Part shown: piece after piece, positions 4,340-63,181 of the stretch | Layout: each line of letters starts with the position of its first letter | Numbering within the stretch: position 1 is the first letter of the stretch | Origin: a virus | Length of the DNA stretch: 64,000 nt | Strand: one strand, 5' to 3' | Virus record (IMG/VR): IMGVR_UViG_3300030098_006570 | Span: 1-64,000 of that record | Notes under the pieces: generated by a model | Databases searched by the model: none | Told to the model about the DNA's origin: nothing | The model's input: the letters and a program-made list of their open reading frames with translations, nothing else | Translations under genes and position numbers: made by a program

Positions 4340-5282
4340 CCACTATTCTGTTCATAATGGCATGCAAGTCGTCCCAGTTAAACACCCCGAACCCATCTTG
4401 GTTCATCATGCGAATAACTTCCGTCTTGTTGTAATCATATTCAAAATTTTCTAGAGCGTAATGCACCTTCTCGCGGCACTGTAAAGAGAGGGCGGGATTG
4501 TAAAGTTGCATCAACTTGTAGTTCTCTATAATTACATCTCTGTGGCCTAAAACGTTGGTGAAAAACTTAGCTTTGGAGTCAGTTTCAAGACAGAAATCAA
4601 AAATCTCCTGCAATGACGCATCCTTATCTTCTCTAAGAAAATTGAAGTTTTTTGCGATACTTTTCAGACCAGCTCGGGGGACGCCTTTCAGGTTGTCCGA
4701 AGGATCTCCGGCAATAGCGCGTGCCATGGCAAAGTTTCGCGGATGGATATCAAAATCCTCCACTACATTCAGCTTTGTGTGTACCTTTTTCTGAATGGGT
4801 CGGAACAGAACCGTTTCATTATCGCACAGTTGGATGAAATCCTTGTCACTAGAAACGATCACCTTCTCCCAGCCATCGAAGTGGGGGAGCCTACTTGCGT
4901 AAGCGATGACGTCATCAGCCTCAACCTCGTCAAAACGCAGCTGAACGACGGGCAGTTCGTTCAAATACTCCATAAGACGCAGCTGCTGCCACGCCATGTT
5001 GGCCCGCTGTTGCTCATCGGTAAGGTCGGTTTGTCGATTAACTCGAATAGGCTTTCGGCCCTCCTTGTAGTTCTTGTTCTGCTGCCGACGCTTGCGGCTT
5101 CCTCCGGGGCCATCCCAGATGATCATCACTGCATCAGGCTTGATGTCGCGACAAAGCTTCTGTAGGATGCCTAGGAAGCCCTTCAGGCCTCCGATGGGCT
5201 GTCCATGGGTAGACAGGCTAGGATTGACGATAAAAGCCCGGAAATAGGCGTTCAGGGCGTCTACGATCATTACTCTTTTCAT
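4317..5282 (-). CDS. 5'-3' exonuclease / flap endonuclease (PolI N-terminal, T4 RNase H-like)
   Basis: IVDALN, WDG, NYKEGR, EADDVIA, SSDKDF and GDPSDNLKGV motifs. ATG 5282 overlaps the upstream stop (ATGA). Confidence 0.9.
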   Translation of the reverse strand: MKRVMIVDALNAYFRAFIVNPSLSTHGQPIGGLKGFLGILQKLCRDIKPDAVMIIWDGPGGSRKRRQQNKNYKEGRKPIRVNRQTDLTDEQQRANMAWQQLRLMEYLNELPVVQLRFDEVEADDVIAYASRLPHFDGWEKVIVSSDKDFIQLCDNETVLFRPIQKKVHTKLNVVEDFDIHPRNFAMARAIAGDPSDNLKGVPRAGLKSIAKNFNFLREDKDASLQEIFDFCLETDSKAKFFTNVLGHRDVIIENYKLMQLYNPALSLQCREKVHYALENFEYDYNKTEVIRMMNQDGFGVFNWDDLHAIMNRIVVDKALRN

Positions 5283-5743
5283 GCTGCTGTCCACCATTGG
5301 GGCACCTCCGATTTCCATGTGGCAAAGGCTGCCTTCTCCCCGTGGTAGTACGCCCGATAGGCAGTCACGGCGCACTCATTCTTGTACTGCTCAGGCATCG
5401 CCTGCGCAAAAGGAGTAAGCCCCTTCTGTGGAAAACCAAGAGGCAGTCGTGCACACCAACGAATAACAGCTTCGCTCTTGTGTTGGCGTCCATAGCGCCG
5501 AGTGTATTCCTCAGCCATCGCTAGACCGTGCGTGATCAGCCACTGCCAGTTCTCGGCGGACTTGCCAGCCCACAAGGTGCATGGGTGCTTTGGGTGTGCC
5601 TTTTTGTACGGCGCATTGAAGCCGTGATTGTGGGCCACAGTGCACAGCATCTGGGCGCTCTCTAGGATCATTTTTACTACGTGTTTGTCGCAGAGTTGCC
5701 GAGCTGCGATCTCGGGATCTTCGTCTACTACGAATATGTTCAT
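5279..5743 (-). CDS. Pyrimidine-dimer DNA glycosylase / endonuclease V-related protein
   Basis: MNIFVVD...CDKHVVKMILESAQML...HPCTLW...AYRAYY pattern of this family. Confidence 0.75.
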   Translation of the reverse strand: MNIFVVDEDPEIAARQLCDKHVVKMILESAQMLCTVAHNHGFNAPYKKAHPKHPCTLWAGKSAENWQWLITHGLAMAEEYTRRYGRQHKSEAVIRWCARLPLGFPQKGLTPFAQAMPEQYKNECAVTAYRAYYHGEKAAFATWKSEVPQWWTAA

Positions 5744-7580: not shown

Positions 7581-7613
7581 CGCGCAGGTCTCCTAGACGT
7601 ATAATAAATAGTT

Positions 7614-9806: not shown

Positions 9807-9833
9807 TTTAAACTCCCTTTCTGTGTGATAAGT

Positions 9834-9865
9834 TGAGACCCCTGTATCCCCGGGCCTCCCTGCGG
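9834..9865 (-). repeat. Repeated 5'-UTR stem-loop element, copy 1
   Basis: CCGCAGGGAGGCCCGGGGATACAGGGGTCTCA; stem GAGGCCC/GGGTCTC. Confidence 0.75.
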
Positions 9866-9875
9866 ACGGTAGAGT

Positions 9876-10064
9876 CTACCTTGCGTTCTTAGTCTCTTGG
9901 ACCTCAACGCGAAGCTCCTGAGCCAGCGTCTTCACCTCTTGCATAGCCTTACGAACACGGGTTCCCGCAGCGTTGTTACCGCTGGCGAAAAACTTATCAT
10001 GATCCGTACGGGTTTCTTCAAGAAGCGTAATCAGCTGTTCAAGTCGATTCGTTGTAGTAGTCAT
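9876..10064 (-). CDS. Histone H1-like Hc1-family nucleoid protein
   Basis: KFFASGNNAAGTRVRKAMQEVKTLAQELR matches the Hc1-family core. Confidence 0.8.
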   Translation of the reverse strand: MTTTTNRLEQLITLLEETRTDHDKFFASGNNAAGTRVRKAMQEVKTLAQELRVEVQETKNAR

Positions 10065-10081
10065 AACTCTTCCTTTCTATT

Positions 10082-10114
10082 TGAGGCCCCTGATAACCCT
10101 GGGCCTCCCTGTGG
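10082..10114 (-). repeat. Repeated 5'-UTR stem-loop element, copy 2
   Basis: CCACAGGGAGGCCCAGGGTTATCAGGGGCCTCA. Confidence 0.8.
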
Positions 10115-10123
10115 GTCAAAAGT

Positions 10124-10327
10124 TTACTTCTTCTGAACGAAGGCGTAAAGCTTTTCAGCTTCACCAATCACATCTTCAGTCGTATAGGCTGCAACGGAGG
10201 TCCGCTGGTCTTCGGGCTTAAAATGTTCATTCTCAACTTGACGATTCGTACGATCCGCCACAATGCCAATTGCCATTCCTAGCAAATCGGTGCGGAGTTC
10301 GTATCCGCTCTTGTTAGTATCACTCAT
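10124..10327 (-). CDS. Small hypothetical phage protein
   Basis: 67 aa (GYELRTDLL...AEKLYAFV); AGGAG SD. Confidence 0.7.
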   Translation of the reverse strand: MSDTNKSGYELRTDLLGMAIGIVADRTNRQVENEHFKPEDQRTSVAAYTTEDVIGEAEKLYAFVQKK

Positions 10328-10355
10328 AATATTCTCCTTTGTGTGTGTATAAGTG

Positions 10356-10388
10356 TGAGGCCCCTGATAACCCTAGGCCTCCCTGTGG
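10356..10388 (-). repeat. Repeated 5'-UTR stem-loop element, copy 3
   Basis: CCACAGGGAGGCCTAGGGTTATCAGGGGCCTCA. Confidence 0.8.
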
Positions 10389-10508
10389 GGGGGATTTTTT
10401 CCCAGTCTTTTTTGAGCAAGCAGGATCTGCTCTTCAAGGTATCTTATCATTCTACGATAAGACTCAATCTCCTTAGAGAGGAGATCTTTCTCGCCCGATG
10501 ACGGCATC

Positions 10509-27985: not shown

Positions 27986-28062
27986 AAGACAAGGTCTCCT
28001 AAACCGTAGATATTCTTATTCTAAATAGTACGGAATGCGGGCAAGAGAATAGCGCAAGGATA

Positions 28063-30764: not shown

Positions 30765-30795
30765 GTATAATCCTCAATTAGACTATTACTAAATA

Positions 30796-30827
30796 GAAAG
30801 CCCCGCCTCAAAAGAGACGGGGCTTTC
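30796..30827 (-). terminator. Intrinsic terminator after major capsid gene
   Basis: GAAAGCCCCGTCTC-TTTT-GAGGCGGGGCTTTC followed by TATTT. Confidence 0.75.
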
Positions 30828-37374: not shown

Positions 37375-37431
37375 TGATTATTCTCCGGGTATAATAAATA
37401 GTATCCAATCTAATCTATGAATGTTTAAAGT

Positions 37432-53964: not shown

Positions 53965-56900
53965 TCATTGATTTACCCTCGCAAAGCCATCTTTCTTATC
54001 GATCGTAATTTCTAGATCCACAATGTCTTTTAGTGAATCCACGTGAGAAATAAGGATGACGGTTTTGAAATACATCTTAATTAGCTGAAGGATTCGAATA
54101 AATCCTTCCATATTCTCAGCATCTAGCGCGGTGCCGGGCTCATCAAGAATAAAGATATTACCCTTCGGTAGTGAAGACACCGAGAGCAAAGCCAAGCGAA
54201 TAGCCATAGCTGCCACTGTCTTCTCTGCTCCTGAGCCCATCTCGATAGGTCTCGGTTCGTGTTTGGGATGCTTGATCAGGATATCTAGCTTGCGACCGTC
54301 CTCCTGAAAGAAAACATCAAAGTCTACAATATTAGAGAGAACCTTTGCTACCTCTCCGTTAATAACTGGCAAGCGCTTCTTGATAATATCATAAGCAATA
54401 CCATTAGAGTGAGTACATCGCATAAACAAATCATAAGCCGCATATTCCTCTCGTATCTCGTCAAGCTCTTGCTTCTTTTCTTTTAGGTCTTCAACCTTCT
54501 GTTCCATAGAGCCAAGCTGCCTATTATGAAGGTTGATAGAATTTTCAGTCTCCGCTATCTCAGTCTGAAGGTCTGCCACCTTCTTGTCGACCCTTGTGCG
54601 GGAGTTGATAAGCTTCTCAATATTCTTGATCAAATCCTTCTTCTCTTCATACAGCTCGATCTTTTCTTTAGTGGAGCGGAGATTGTCTCTGTATCCCTTT
54701 ATCTTCGCATAGAGTTTTTCAATAGAAACTTTGTTGTCTCGCTTCTCAATCTCAATATTATTCTTTTGAATTATGGTGTTGTTATAGTTTTCAATCAAGC
54801 TGATCATTTCGGCGGAGTTTACAGAAACAACCTTCGTCTTATAATCTTTGGCTTGTTCGATCCTCTCAATAATCTCCGCCTCTAAAGAGGGTAGCTCCAC
54901 TGCAGCTAAATGAGCATCGCTGATAAATTGGCAGGTAGGGAAGCTGTTCCCGCAGGGAACTTCATCCAGCAGATGTAGCTTCTTGGTCATAGCTTTATAG
55001 TCGTTATCCATAAGGCGAGCTTTGTTGACTGTATCCTCATACTTCTGCTTAAAATCATCATAACTTTGTTTCTGCGCCAATAAGTCCTCGATATCGATCG
55101 TCGTCAAGAAGTCATCGTATTCCTGAAGCTTTTCTTCGTAGTCTTTATTCTCTTGCTTCAGTTCTACAATATTGATATCTGTATCTTCAATCTTCTTTTC
55201 AAGGGCTGCGCGCGTCTCTAGTAAATTCTTGATGTCTAAACGCTCCGCGGGGATCGAGTCGATCTGTGTTGTCAGGCTGGCTTGTTTCTCTATGGCCGTG
55301 GCCAGACTTGTTCTTAAACTCTCACAGCTGGCTACCTCGCCGAGGAGCGCTTTTTTCACTTCGTCATGCTGCACCTCCGCAATTGCGATGTCAGTATTAT
55401 AATCCGTATCGCCTACGCGTCGAATTACGGCCTTTAGATCGGCACTATCCTCGTGGGCCAGCTTAAACTTTTTCTCAAAGATATCTAAATCCAAGAACTT
55501 AGCTAGGATTTCCTTGCGACGAGTAGAGCCCTCTTTAATAAAGGATAAACTATCGAGTTGACTCGACATGGATGTCAACAAAAAATCCTCTACTGTGCCG
55601 AATCGTTTTCGAATATGGGCGTCTGTCTCGTTGCGGGTGGTGCCGTTGAGGCTAGTTTCCTCTCCCACCATGGGATCTAAGCCGCTAAATTCCAAGAATG
55701 TGCGTGCCTCATTGGTTACCTCACCCTTTAGTTTCCTTACATACTTCTCAGACTGGCGCTCGATCGTGTAGGTCTTGTCGCCTACTTGGAGTTCCAGACG
55801 CCCCATACAATCTTTTCGATTTTGATTGATGATATTGTAGTTCTTGCGCTCGTTCTTTGATGTGGTATTGAACATGGTATATAGGAGGCCGTCAATAATG
55901 CTGGACTTACCTGAATAGTTCTTACCGAAAATTCCGACGATGCCATTGAGGTTGCTAAAATCAACGCTATTACCCTCTCCATAGTTGAACAGATTATCCC
56001 ACTCAAACTTATTGAGATTCCAATTTACATTTCGGGCGACCTCTTCGGTCTCTTCAATCTTGGAATTGTACTTGCGGTTGAGTTCGAACACACGTTCCAA
56101 CATTTGCTCAGTGGGCTGGTATTCCACTAGGTACTCTCGAATGAGATCTTCCTGCACGCCTTTGTCCCGGAGGTTCTCCACTTTGAAGCCGGTACCGACC
56201 TCAACCGTTCCCCGCTCGCCAGCGGCACGATTTAGGAAGGTAATACTCTCAGGCTTGAAACGGTGCTTGGCAACCTCCACAGCCTTACGCATAACGTCAA
56301 GGGGAAGATTATTGTTGCTCACGAGACGCAAGCGTGAAGTCGGGGGAATCTTGGTGCCCTTTGGCATTCGGCCCTTGGGTGTGAGTTCGATTGTTACGAA
56401 TGGTTTAGGGTTGAGCAAAACATGATGCTTGACCGTGAATGTATTCTTGTCTTCAATTTCCCAAATAAGAAATCCCTTGTCATTTGTCTCACCGTGATTC
56501 TGCTGAACGGTGCTACCGCAATAGCGCACTCGACCTTCTGTATCAAGAATCTGGTTTGTCTTATGAATATCACCAAGCATTGCGAAGTCGTGACCGGCAA
56601 ACACTCCAATGTCGTGATCCCCATGATCCATAACCCATCCGACGTCAGTAGACACTCCGCCGATTGCGCCGTGATACAAAGCAATATTAATACGCGACTG
56701 GTCGCTTGGCGCAACCCAATTCTCCTCATCAAACACAGATAGCACGTTGAGCGCGAGATCGGGCTCTACGACGGTTTCACCGGCATTCTTGAGCAGATGG
56801 AGGTTAGGAAGATTCAAAGCGCTTACAATGGGCGACAGCGCGTCCTGACGAGTACTGTTCTTCAGGTTGCCGTCGTGGTTGCCCAAGATGATGTAGGTTG

Positions 56901-57117
56901 GCGCGATCGATGCCAGATTCATGAAGAAGTCGGAGCATAGCTCAACGAACTCTGGTGAGATCTGGGTCTTGGTGTGGGCGATGTCGCCGCAGTGAACAAT
57001 GTAGTCCACGTTCTCTTTACGAAGCGTCTCATAAAGCTGTTCGAATACTTTCTTGTATTCGTAATGATATTTTAAATTTTTTATATGCGTGTCCGCAATG
57101 TGAGCAATTCTATACAC
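53965..57117 (-). CDS. SbcD-SbcC (Mre11-Rad50; gp47-gp46) fusion nuclease/ATPase
   Basis: Phosphoesterase motifs DTH, GD, GNHD, GDIH; Walker A GKNYSGKS; coiled coil; GSGAEK; LDEP; ISH. Confidence 0.9.
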   Translation of the reverse strand: MYRIAHIADTHIKNLKYHYEYKKVFEQLYETLRKENVDYIVHCGDIAHTKTQISPEFVELCSDFFMNLASIAPTYIILGNHDGNLKNSTRQDALSPIVSALNLPNLHLLKNAGETVVEPDLALNVLSVFDEENWVAPSDQSRINIALYHGAIGGVSTDVGWVMDHGDHDIGVFAGHDFAMLGDIHKTNQILDTEGRVRYCGSTVQQNHGETNDKGFLIWEIEDKNTFTVKHHVLLNPKPFVTIELTPKGRMPKGTKIPPTSRLRLVSNNNLPLDVMRKAVEVAKHRFKPESITFLNRAAGERGTVEVGTGFKVENLRDKGVQEDLIREYLVEYQPTEQMLERVFELNRKYNSKIEETEEVARNVNWNLNKFEWDNLFNYGEGNSVDFSNLNGIVGIFGKNYSGKSSIIDGLLYTMFNTTSKNERKNYNIINQNRKDCMGRLELQVGDKTYTIERQSEKYVRKLKGEVTNEARTFLEFSGLDPMVGEETSLNGTTRNETDAHIRKRFGTVEDFLLTSMSSQLDSLSFIKEGSTRRKEILAKFLDLDIFEKKFKLAHEDSADLKAVIRRVGDTDYNTDIAIAEVQHDEVKKALLGEVASCESLRTSLATAIEKQASLTTQIDSIPAERLDIKNLLETRAALEKKIEDTDINIVELKQENKDYEEKLQEYDDFLTTIDIEDLLAQKQSYDDFKQKYEDTVNKARLMDNDYKAMTKKLHLLDEVPCGNSFPTCQFISDAHLAAVELPSLEAEIIERIEQAKDYKTKVVSVNSAEMISLIENYNNTIIQKNNIEIEKRDNKVSIEKLYAKIKGYRDNLRSTKEKIELYEEKKDLIKNIEKLINSRTRVDKKVADLQTEIAETENSINLHNRQLGSMEQKVEDLKEKKQELDEIREEYAAYDLFMRCTHSNGIAYDIIKKRLPVINGEVAKVLSNIVDFDVFFQEDGRKLDILIKHPKHEPRPIEMGSGAEKTVAAMAIRLALLSVSSLPKGNIFILDEPGTALDAENMEGFIRILQLIKMYFKTVILISHVDSLKDIVDLEITIDKKDGFARVNQ

Positions 57118-57136
57118 GTTATCCCCTAAAACAAAA

Positions 57137-57174
57137 CTCTATCACCAGTATACACCAGTGATAGAGCCTGTCAA
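57137..57174 (-). promoter_or_regulatory. sigma70-like promoter inside an inverted repeat / terminator hairpin
   Basis: TTGACA-16nt-TATACT; arms CTCTATCAC(TGG) and (CTG)GTGATAGAG, followed by TTTTGTTTT. Confidence 0.7.
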
Positions 57175-57208
57175 GTGTTATTTTTAATTTTTATTGGTAG
57201 CCGAAGTC

Positions 57209-57658
57209 TTAAAAGTTTCTTGGATAATCGCGCTTAATGGCGTGAACACGTTCGCCCTTGGCTAGCCGGCCTTTGATCCTATCTACATCACCCTGATGGA
57301 GGCGACCTTTTGACTTTTCAAATTCTGCTTTCCGAATAAGATCCTGAGCCTCAGCGTTGCTCTCCTCCATCGGAGCGTACATCGGGTTGGCCAGGATGTG
57401 ACGAAGCGAAGCAACCATGTCGGCGTCCAAACTCATACTGAGATCTTCCAACTCATCGCGGGTCATCTTGCCCAGGGCCTCTCTAGCCTTTATGAGAATG
57501 AGAAGCCGCTCTTCGGGGGATGTGAAGGCCCGGTCGCGAGTCTCCTCATCCTCCGGTTCGGCGATATCTTCAATGCCAGCACCGGGGCGGTCGGCGCCGC
57601 GCATGGCATCCATCTCTTCCTTGATAATCTTTTTAAGTCTTTGTTTCGTGATTTTCAT
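57209..57658 (-). CDS. Hypothetical protein, MKITKQRLKKIIKEE leader
   Basis: ORF track; paralogous leader. Confidence 0.75.
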   Translation of the reverse strand: MKITKQRLKKIIKEEMDAMRGADRPGAGIEDIAEPEDEETRDRAFTSPEERLLILIKAREALGKMTRDELEDLSMSLDADMVASLRHILANPMYAPMEESNAEAQDLIRKAEFEKSKGRLHQGDVDRIKGRLAKGERVHAIKRDYPRNF

Positions 57659-57987
57659 GGCTTCTTGAACCTCTCCTTGTCGGATCTATAATCTCCAGCA
57701 GAACGCTTGCGCCCGATCCTTTTCAGTCCCTGCCGCATTCTTTTGATCTTCTCTGGTGTAATTTGTGGTAATTCTAGGGTTGCTTCTTCGTCCTCTTTCT
57801 CGGACTCTTCCTTCATGGGGCCGCTGCACATCTCTTCGGCCTCTGCTTTGGACAGTCCCTCAGGACGGTCGGCATCTTCGTCAGCCATGGCGCACATGTA
57901 GTTACGCTGCTTTTCGGAGTGAACTTCAACCACCGAAGCAATCTCTTCTTTGATAATCTGGTGTAATCTTGTTTTACTAATCTTCAT
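57655..57987 (-). CDS. Hypothetical protein, MKISKTRLHQIIKEE leader
   Basis: ORF track; ATGA coupling. Confidence 0.75.
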   Translation of the reverse strand: MKISKTRLHQIIKEEIASVVEVHSEKQRNYMCAMADEDADRPEGLSKAEAEEMCSGPMKEESEKEDEEATLELPQITPEKIKRMRQGLKRIGRKRSAGDYRSDKERFKKP

Positions 57988-58109
57988 TTCTTGGTCTCCA
58001 TTGTACCTAAGAGGTCTTCGCCCATGTATCGAATCTCATAAACCATTACTGCTCTCAAATAGAGTATTTCTTGAATCATGTTTGTTAGGTGGGCTCCTGA
58101 TATCTTCAT
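57984..58109 (-). CDS. Small hypothetical protein, degenerate leader MKISGAHLTNMIQE
   Basis: Manual translation (41 aa); coupled by ATGA to the next gene. Confidence 0.5.
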   Translation of the reverse strand: MKISGAHLTNMIQEILYLRAVMVYEIRYMGEDLLGTMETKK

Positions 58110-58110
58110 T

Positions 58111-58344
58111 TTATAGAATATTTTTTAGCGCGTCGTTCAGGAAGTCTCGGAGATTCTCTATAGCTACATACTGCACTGCTTCCCGAATAGCACCATCAAG
58201 CTCTTCAAGAACACCTATTTCGGTTTGGCTTTTGCCGTATCTTTCGGCAGGAGTTCGCATATCGGGCTCTTCCTCTTCTGTTACGGCACCGAGTCCTATC
58301 TCTTCCTTGATGATTTCTCGTAATCTTTGTTTGGTGATTTTCAT
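58111..58344 (-). CDS. Hypothetical protein, MKITKQRLREIIKEE leader
   Basis: Start reassigned to 58344 after AGGAG; late motif at 58378-58387. Confidence 0.75.
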   Translation of the reverse strand: MKITKQRLREIIKEEIGLGAVTEEEEPDMRTPAERYGKSQTEIGVLEELDGAIREAVQYVAIENLRDFLNDALKNIL

Positions 58345-58352
58345 GACTTCTC

Positions 58353-59288
58353 CTACAGCGACATGGCAATTGTCAACAATAAATAGTTGTCCGGAGTGAT
58401 AAGAGTCGCATTTTCCAGGCATTTCTGGAATTGTCCCTTATTCATAGACCCGACGTCTTCGTTATCACCGATATCAACCTTCCAAACCTCGATATCAAAA
58501 TCCAGCAAAGTTTTGATAATTTCAAGCTCTTTCTTCTTTGCGTCAGGGTCTAGCGCCACATAAACTCCCGCGTCTTCTTTCACGATCCTACGGAGCAAAA
58601 CAGAGTTCTGATTTAATGTAGACCCCAGAATGGGGACTGCGTTCCTGCCCGCTGTAATGGCATCAAACACACCCTCTACCAGAATGATATCGGAACTCCA
58701 GTCCACAAATAAATCGTTGAAGACAATATTCTTGCTGACCGGAGGATTCTTGTACTTAGGATAGAACTTCTTGTCGTAGGAGCGAGACACAAAATATGTC
58801 AGATCGCCCTCTTCGTCAAACGACGGAATAATGATACGACCTTCGTACTCGCCACTGGCGCAGTAGCCCATCTTCCACCACATGATATCTTTCTTATCGA
58901 TACCGCGCTTGCGTAGATAGTTACGGGCCGCGAACCCTGTGGGTGGAACATCTTTGCTGGCCAGAGAAACAAAGCCCTCGGGCATCTCAACTACTTGCTT
59001 TTCTTCAATTGTCTCTGCGAAAAGATCTTCGAGCTTGTCATATTCAACAGCGTCAGTAAACTCTCGCCAAGCTGCCTTATCAGAGTGATTGCCGAAGCGG
59101 CGAATAACACGATAGATATTTTTACCACGCGTGTCGCATATCCAGCATTTGTAGTAGCCCTTAGCCACATTGACAGAAAACTTACGCTTATGATGATTAC
59201 AATAGGGACAAGCAAATAGATACTCATTGTTGGATCTGTACGCTGGCCCGAGGACGTTAGTTAGAATCTTGAGTTTCTTGGCTTTCAC
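58353..59288 (-). CDS. DNA primase (zinc finger + TOPRIM)
   Basis: CPYC..H...CWIC, RIIIP, KYKNP, EGVFDA and LDPDA motifs; start position uncertain. Confidence 0.88.
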   Translation of the reverse strand: MKAKKLKILTNVLGPAYRSNNEYLFACPYCNHHKRKFSVNVAKGYYKCWICDTRGKNIYRVIRRFGNHSDKAAWREFTDAVEYDKLEDLFAETIEEKQVVEMPEGFVSLASKDVPPTGFAARNYLRKRGIDKKDIMWWKMGYCASGEYEGRIIIPSFDEEGDLTYFVSRSYDKKFYPKYKNPPVSKNIVFNDLFVDWSSDIILVEGVFDAITAGRNAVPILGSTLNQNSVLLRRIVKEDAGVYVALDPDAKKKELEIIKTLLDFDIEVWKVDIGDNEDVGSMNKGQFQKCLENATLITPDNYLLLTIAMSL

Positions 59289-59790
59289 GTATCCATCCCG
59301 CCTTTGCAATCACATAGCTATCCGAACGGTCGGCGTAGCCAGCCTTTGGATTACCATGTCTTGTGTATTCTATATCAAAGGAGGGTACGTTGTCAAGCAC
59401 AAACTGAAGCGCGACGGCTTTTGCCTTATGGCCCTTGGGAACCTTGATGCCACAACTTTTTCTAGCCGACGTAGCAGCGATATATTCGGGCTCGATTCCA
59501 AAAAGATTATAACATATCCATGAAACAATGCCATTTATTTTTGACAATAAAGATAATGTCTGTGCTGATGAAAATCCAGAGCGGAAAGACTGAAGGGACT
59601 GTTCCACATAAATGTGCTCAATAAAGTAATCATTTCGTATTGCCGCTAGCCGACCCTCAACCGCAGAACACTTCTGAAAGAAGTTCTTTTCTTTACGAAG
59701 ATCTATATGGTCGCAGACGACGATATTGCCGCTATTATCCAATATGGTGTAGCCAGTAATACTGGTTGAGATGTCAAGTCCTAAAATCAC
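59257..59790 (-). CDS. RuvC-like Holliday junction resolvase
   Basis: MILGLDISTSITG, IYVEQ and DRSDSYVIA motifs. Confidence 0.8.
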   Translation of the reverse strand: MILGLDISTSITGYTILDNSGNIVVCDHIDLRKEKNFFQKCSAVEGRLAAIRNDYFIEHIYVEQSLQSFRSGFSSAQTLSLLSKINGIVSWICYNLFGIEPEYIAATSARKSCGIKVPKGHKAKAVALQFVLDNVPSFDIEYTRHGNPKAGYADRSDSYVIAKAGWIRESQETQDSN

Positions 59791-63131: not shown

Positions 63132-63181
63132 TGTCTATTCACCTCTCGTAATATAAATAGTTATCACTTTAACTAATGTCT

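Follow-up and report, generated by a model that had tools for sequence, protein, structure and literature searches.

A sigma70-like promoter overlapping a terminator-like hairpin heads the SbcDC nuclease gene of a T4-type phage

The promoter in front of the SbcDC nuclease gene of a T4-type phage overlaps a hairpin: its -10 box lies at the loop of a stable stem, which is followed by a U-tract, a Shine-Dalgarno motif and the start codon. We consider it probable that this element (copy B; a second element of the same layout is called copy A) is a composite terminator/promoter cassette of the promoter-early stem-loop (PeSL) type, which would stop transcripts from a variable gene island, restart transcription for SbcDC and so uncouple the nuclease gene from its changeable neighbours. 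The window, that is, the whole stretch of DNA analysed, comprises 64,000 nucleotides (positions 1 to 64,000 of the IMG/VR record IMGVR_UViG_3300030098_006570).

PeSLs are known from the T4-type phages RB49/phi1, PST/T4 and nt-1/KVP40 (Arbiol 2010, PMC2839356; Comeau 2014, PMC4122927). In the parts of these papers on which we draw, a PeSL is an intergenic cassette composed of an AT-rich stretch with an upstream stop codon, a near-consensus sigma70 promoter with -35 and -10 boxes about 17 nt apart, a stem-loop, a Shine-Dalgarno sequence and a start codon (PMC2839356; PMC4122927). The stem-loop, which includes G-T pairs, most often lies between the boxes or overlaps the -10 box, these being the two commonest layouts (PMC2839356), and in a lacZ assay it lowered read-through like a strong terminator (PMC2839356; PMC4122927). 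The same sections place PeSLs by preference in variable (hyperplastic) regions, where they mark points at which genes are gained, lost or exchanged (PMC2839356; PMC4122927). Copy B combines a sigma70-like promoter, an AT-rich region with a stop codon, a stem-loop enclosing the -10 box, and a Shine-Dalgarno sequence with a start codon. It marks replacement sites, the 300 nt on its 5' side being unrelated in eight of nine relatives in which cassette and gene are conserved, and it is carried by a T4-type myovirus. By its sequence, copy B belongs to the described PeSL class, with terminator activity predicted from the hairpin and the U-tract. The initial annotation of this DNA was largely right but incomplete, membership of the PeSL class not having been recognised.

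The contig that carries the window measures 148,084 bp (IMG/VR completeness estimate 82%) and encodes a Gp23 capsid protein (PF07068, 8e-71), a T4-like Gp20 portal protein (PF07230, 5e-81), a T4-type terminase and a tail sheath. A megablast search against GenBank phages gave no nucleotide match; Microcystis phage Mel-JY01 is the nearest isolate, its proteins being 35-42% identical, and the DNA runs that match the window are marine metagenomes. T4-type core genes, a distant nearest isolate and marine runs together indicate a deep-branching, uncultured marine relative of the T4 group. The gene headed by copy B joins an SbcD/Mre11-type phosphoesterase and an SbcC/Rad50-type ATPase in one frame. 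T4 has two separate genes, 47 and 46, for these SbcD/SbcC-type functions. The fusion is retained in related contigs, at about 1046-1078 aa.

Copy B lies on the minus strand, like nearly all genes of the contig, in a 91-nt spacer between the last gene of the island and the SbcDC gene. Its parts are, in the direction of transcription:

57211-57209, minus strand: TAA stop codon of the last island gene (149 aa, 57209-57658)
57197-57175, minus strand: AT-rich stretch directly 5' of the -35 box, 19 of 23 positions A/T
57174-57169, minus strand: -35 hexamer TTGACA, with a 16-nt spacer to the -10 box
57166-57155, minus strand: hairpin 5' arm CTCTATCACTGG, within the promoter spacer
57154-57149, minus strand: hairpin loop TGTATA
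57152-57147, minus strand: -10 hexamer TATACT, four bases in the loop and two in the 3' arm
57148-57137, minus strand: hairpin 3' arm CTGGTGATAGAG
57136-57128, minus strand: U-tract TTTTGTTTT directly after the stem, 8 of 9 positions U
57129-57118, minus strand: 12-mer leader TTAGGGGATAAC, read as an AGGGG ribosome site plus spacer
57117, minus strand: GTG start codon of the SbcDC gene
53965-57117, minus strand: fused SbcD-SbcC gene, 1050 aa, GTG start, T4 gp47/gp46-like, of the Mre11-Rad50 type

The stretch 57175-57197 is 83% A/T, against 52% for the genome. In a consensus scan of 52-64 kb, TTGACA-16-TATACT matched 11 of 12 promoter positions, among the best promoter matches there, and copy B was the first-listed terminator-like site with the longest stem, at 16 pairs. 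The stem as delimited here has 12 bp (57166-57137), made up of nine Watson-Crick pairs followed by U.G, G.U and G-C; it is AU-rich, with only five G-C pairs. The hairpin has a predicted energy of -19.2 kcal/mol (z -6.0), and none of 200 shuffles was as stable. AGGGG stands 5 nt from the GTG. A search of 56900-57400 against Rfam, with E up to 1, gave only two chance-level matches, one to a snoRNA model and one to a miRNA model. The initial annotation had described TTGACA-16-TATACT with its -10 box at the loop of a hairpin, and every detail of that description proved correct, on the minus strand; the 12-bp repeat with G-U pairs and a following U-tract is likewise present in copy B, and the 12-mer that it called identical between the copies does stand at 57129-57118, just 5' of the GTG at 57117.

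Copy A heads a pyrimidine-dimer-glycosylase-like gene and is laid out as follows:

5804-5741, minus strand: copy A element
5804-5799, minus strand: -35 hexamer TTGACA, with a 17-nt spacer to the -10 box
5796-5785 and 5775-5764, minus strand: hairpin arms GAAGCTCCTATG and CATAGGAGCTTC
5781-5776, minus strand: -10 hexamer TATACT
5758-5747, minus strand: 12-mer
5743, minus strand: ATG of the pyrimidine-dimer-glycosylase-like gene

An AT-rich region and a stop codon lie 5' of the -35 box, similar to copy B, and AGGGG is 8 nt from the ATG. The hairpin (5796-5764) reaches -24.8 kcal/mol (z -9.5); its arms are unrelated in sequence to those of copy B, and a U-tract is absent. The claim that the two copies have the same architecture consequently stands for the layout, with unrelated arms, but not for the U-tract, which copy A lacks. 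On the 3' side of the glycosylase-like gene are genes for a 5'-3' exonuclease (FEN), a DnaB-type helicase and ribonucleotide reductase; the glycosylase-like and FEN genes overlap by ATGA in the window (5279-5290).

The region upstream of copy B is a variable island between the primase gene (58353-59309) and the cassette:

57209-58344, minus strand: variable island of four small MKI[TS]... genes, with starts at 58344, 58109, 57987 and 57658
58386-58380, minus strand: late-promoter-like motif CTATTTA, its start 42 nt from the ATG of the first island gene
58380-58386, 37395-37401, 30790-30796, 28022-28028, 63154-63160 and 7605-7611, minus strand: copies of CTATTTA, which also occurs elsewhere in the contig

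The four island genes have in common only an N-terminal leader of 14-15 residues (MKITKQRL type or a variant), and the 45-nt gene head varies in copy number from about one to at least four in the equivalent region of relatives. One metatranscriptome contig matches 57209-57369 almost perfectly and then carries, exactly after the stop codon, an MKISK gene and no cassette. This is a further gene-content variant and is silent on transcription. The coding strand of the contig has 23 copies of CTATTTA and the other strand none, with about 10 expected per strand. Many copies lie 25-46 nt 5' of structural gene starts, for example that of the sheath gene, and the copy at 7611 is at the head of two genes upstream of copy A. 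The motif, which differs from the T4 late motif TATAAATA, is a plausible candidate for a late promoter. The initial annotation had placed copy B where a late leader-gene island meets an early gene. The position between island and SbcDC gene is as claimed, with CTATTTA at the island head; the assignment to late and early classes, taken from motifs only, is plausible because of the strand bias of CTATTTA and its position before structural genes.

Searching IMG/VR by protein similarity brought up 134 related SbcDC loci, and 80 of them were kept for comparison of the upstream sequences. Among these 80, the closer relatives carry one of two cassette alleles. Type 1 has the hairpin and the T-run, as in the window; indeed, at least four T follow immediately after the stem in all hairpin-type relatives that were retrieved by protein similarity rather than by pattern. 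Type 2 (loci L004, L005, L009-L013, L015-L018, L020, L022, L024 and L054) possesses the AT-rich stretch, the -35 and -10 boxes and the TAGGGGATAAC leader of type 1, together with a C-rich spacer, and lacks both hairpin and T-run. Its AGGGG is 8 nt from the start codon, and the whole cassette hardly differs among contigs that share no more than 72-80% coding identity with the window. The occurrence of this hairpin-free allele in many close relatives implies that the hairpin is dispensable. A hairpin hiding the ribosome site of type 2, which RNAfold proposed between the C-rich spacer and GGGGAT of the leader, was rejected (z of 0.15, -0.78, -1.00 and 0.09 against shuffles).

Conservation changes abruptly along the locus. 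The 80-nt cassette is 91-94% identical in the closest relatives, compared with 82-85% for the first 900 coding nucleotides, and over the 300 nt 5' of the cassette identity is down to about 55-58% in eight of nine loci. Homology with relatives in blastn resumes at 57184-57199. From this pattern of identity, the cassette appears to be the border at which neighbouring genes are swapped between related phages.

The structure of the hairpin was followed in a scan of IMG/VR with a pattern in which 8+8 stem positions could vary; the promoter boxes, TTTT and the four outer pairs of the stem were fixed. The pattern matched 14 loci with eight stem variants. The possibility that the hairpin is a mobile element present at many genes was rejected, since all 14 matches lie directly before an SbcDC orthologue; this hairpin is therefore orthologous, not dispersed. 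In the 14-locus alignment 99.3% of cells pair, versus 30-57% with the partners slid by one to three columns. A check for covariation in related phages, proposed in the initial annotation, was positive: both partners are changed in four of the eight free pairs (13 cells), and the covariation score was reached by none of 500 shuffles. The annotation had also suggested that structure rather than sequence is conserved, a view that agrees both with these compensatory changes in relatives and with the different arms of copies A and B. At a more distant locus (L076, 64% protein identity) the -10 box is again inside a hairpin whose arms are quite different. Moreover, a U.G intermediate (L173) and two constant wobble pairs beside the loop allow pairing in the coding sense only. 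These coding-sense pairs and the compensatory changes argue that the hairpin structure is under selection, most simply as coding-sense RNA.

The same data bear on two readings in which the inverted repeat acts as DNA. It has to be considered that the repeat might form a cruciform or single-strand hairpin exposing the -10 box, as a supercoiling-sensitive promoter, or might be a hot spot of recombination that promotes gene shuffling. Both copies have the -10 box in the loop, the flanks are replaced exactly at the cassette, and PeSL crossovers in RB49/phi1 were mapped in or beside the stem-loop, according to the relevant section of PMC2839356. However, the G.U pairs, two of them beside the loop and others at several variant positions, are A.C mismatches on the other strand, where about 83% of cells are Watson-Crick, against 99.3% in the coding sense, and a DNA structure leaves the conserved U-tract without a role. 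We regard action in DNA as quite improbable. The palindrome could alternatively be an operator at which a dimeric repressor covers the -10 box and shuts off the nuclease gene at a set time. Many promoters under repressor control likewise have an inverted repeat centred on the -10 box, and the half-sites here contain TATCAC/GTGATA, which may recall lambdoid operator half-sites. Against an operator, the arms of copies A and B have no common sequence, the stems of orthologues change freely with complementarity kept, in part by wobble pairs, an asymmetry at the DNA level, 12 bp separate the half-sites, and the hairpin-free allele retains the promoter. A repressor site is the least probable of the explanations considered here.

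Pairing in the sense RNA also fits the variation of copy A. Its cassette exists in six distinct versions on eight other contigs, none of them with a U-tract. Five versions are intact; they share one 3' arm, and all differences in their 5' arm are A-to-G opposite U, as would be expected for sense-strand RNA pairing, which is kept with no double changes; the version in L227 is degraded, with changes in both arms. The first gene behind the cassette is glycosylase-like in the window and in L084, L135, L198 and L220, deaminase-like in L085 and L227, and directly FEN in L212. The lack of a U-tract throughout this family indicates that the architecture is not always that of a canonical intrinsic terminator. 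The hairpin might thus act on RNA without being mainly a terminator, through 3'-end protection or processing of the island mRNAs or through pausing or attenuation, its overlap with the promoter being a by-product of the short spacer. Changes compatible with G.U favour RNA pairing and are silent on what the pairing does, and the hairpin of copy A and its relatives is very stable (-24.8 kcal/mol in the window) in spite of the missing U-tract. In copy B and in every hairpin-type orthologue, however, the T-run follows the stem at once, which is the defining feature of intrinsic terminators, and PeSL stem-loops cut read-through like a strong terminator in the reporter assay described in the part of PMC2839356 used here. 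We therefore consider a role other than termination unlikely for copy B and retain the terminator/promoter cassette as the preferred reading.

Promoters of the form TTGAC-N-TAnAnT number 18 on the coding strand of the 148-kb contig and two on the other. About five of the 18 have a hairpin around the -10 box, four of them with z below -4. Two TTGACA promoters on the minus strand, at contig positions ~139700-139770 and 138090-138147, likewise place the -10 box within a stable hairpin (z -6.4 and -4.35), and the 3' arm of the promoters near 139762 and 138139 contains the ribosome site (GGAGGAAGGGG and GAGGG). By analogy with T4 e/soc, this site would be hidden in read-through RNA and exposed in RNA started at the promoter. 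Three further early-region promoters on the minus strand, at contig ~147030, 144700 and 144090, have a common downstream box, ATGAGCGAA, a few bases 3' of the -10 box and preceded by ACACG or ACAGA; they may represent a second leader family or very short-leadered genes. Elsewhere, three GAGGCCC...GGGGCCTC hairpins occupy consecutive intergenic spacers of the window (9807-10508, minus strand).

The 12-mer leader is confined to a few sites. A genome-wide count, which the initial annotation had proposed in connection with early genes, yielded two exact copies of TTAGGGGATAAC in the window and the same two in the whole 148,084-bp contig, so that the motif is not genome-wide. Both stand just 5' of start codons, 15-20 nt after a TTGACA/TATACT promoter. 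In IMG/VR, TATACT-N(4-30)-TAGGGGATAAC occurs at 66 loci, 33 of which have a TTGAC -35 box at the right distance. Four genes of this phage group account for 29 of these 33 loci (SbcDC 22, glycosylase-like 3, FEN 3 and deaminase-like 1). As the last three belong to one locus with a variable first gene, in effect two loci have the leader. More distant SbcDC orthologues, among the 80 of 134 loci compared, present an ordinary Shine-Dalgarno sequence (GGAG, GGGAG or AAGGA) at the position of the 12-mer, and the five bases of AGGGG can pair with the anti-Shine-Dalgarno sequence. For both reasons the 12-mer is best taken for a ribosome site, AGGGG, followed by a spacer, within the shared cassette. The suggestion of the initial annotation that it might be an atypical ribosome site is therefore favoured. 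Its other suggestion, a translational operator, is putative only: nothing points to such a role. A RegA-type operator would be found at many early ribosome sites; the 12-mer has two copies, and distant orthologues have an ordinary Shine-Dalgarno sequence. No match to PF01818 (RegA) was found in the contig, which is weak evidence as control genomes gave none either.

A more elaborate proposal would make TAGGGGATAAC, which lies some 10-20 nt into the message of the SbcDC unit and of the deaminase/glycosylase/FEN-helicase unit, the only two units that have it, more than a ribosome site, namely the site of a putative phage RNA-binding regulator that co-ordinates their translation; separately, selection would have kept the hairpin, with the -10 box in its loop, as a temporal insulator that divides late capsid-cargo islands from early genes. 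We consider this proposal decidedly doubtful, a shade more so than a hairpin whose role in RNA is other than termination.

The sequence elements, the stability of the fold, the covariation, the position and the replaced flanks of copy B are compatible with the following sequence of events. A polymerase arriving from upstream, probably on a late transcript started at the CTATTTA before the island, would transcribe both arms and the U-tract and would then terminate or be strongly attenuated. As the stem is AU-rich with few G-C pairs, this termination may be partial. In the same DNA, a host sigma70-type polymerase would bind TTGACA-16-TATACT; the use of sigma70 is suggested by the consensus. From the usual distance of 6-8 nt to the -10 box, transcription is expected to start ~7 nt after that box, at about 57141-57139, inside the 3' arm. 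The promoter's own RNA would consequently be without the 5' arm and could not form the terminator. It would begin with a short unstructured leader of ~22-25 nt, in which AGGGG within TAGGGGATAAC provides the ribosome site. In addition, the conserved sequence of the cassette would mark the border of exchange between phages. RNA libraries touch the region lightly: two metatranscriptome runs matched small shares of the window, and four RNA runs gave three short contigs, from which RNA ends are not readable:

55904-55938: matching RNA-library contig
57209-57369: matching RNA-library contig
57732-57882: matching RNA-library contig

Several known systems join a promoter to a hairpin. The early promoters of phage N4 are DNA hairpins with stems of 5-7 bp and 3-nt loops, used by the virion RNA polymerase, and are without -35 and -10 boxes. 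Copy B resembles them in combining a promoter with an inverted repeat and differs in its canonical sigma70 boxes. At the T4 genes e, soc and I-TevI, the promoter within the hairpin is a late one. Its short transcripts are translatable, and the long ones that read through from upstream stay silent; the ribosome site is concealed by the hairpin. Here too, RNA from the promoter would be without the 5' arm, and upstream and promoter RNAs would behave differently. However, the ribosome site of copy B is outside the stem, the hairpin is terminator-like and the promoter is of the early type. Intrinsic (Rho-independent) terminators share with copy B a stable hairpin followed by a U-run (8 of 9 U), but copy B has few G-C pairs and a complete promoter in the same bases, and copy A is without a U-tract.

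No new kind of mechanism is revealed by the cassette, and it is the covariation and the context of a late/early boundary that are worth keeping. With it, the range of promoter/stem-loop cassettes grows beyond cultured T4-type coliphages and vibriophages to include a deep-branching, abundant and uncultured marine group related to T4, and annotators of marine phages gain a recognisable boundary between transcription units. The cassette also represents a compact part of 60 nt that is predicted to stop incoming transcription and that would start it again.

PeSLs remain the closest parallel. As they are portrayed in the available parts of the two papers, they have the same layout, the same proposed role as terminators, a place at the border of variable regions and T4-type core genes around them (PMC2839356; PMC4122927). 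The phage studied here is very distant, uncultured and marine, and has a handful of cassettes that are less similar to one another, compared with the dozens reported for RB49/phi1; the stem is AU-rich with a clear U-tract, in contrast to the G(n)-loop-C(n) form, and the transcripts to be stopped are probably late. The parts of Arbiol 2010 and Comeau 2014 (PMC2839356, PMC4122927) at our disposal hold no mention of an orthologous PeSL stem kept by compensatory changes. Copy B, unlike the PeSLs portrayed there, heads a conserved core gene, SbcDC, and has been inherited at that place with compensatory changes in its stem; such changes across natural variants argue for selection on the structure itself, and not only for a site of recombination.
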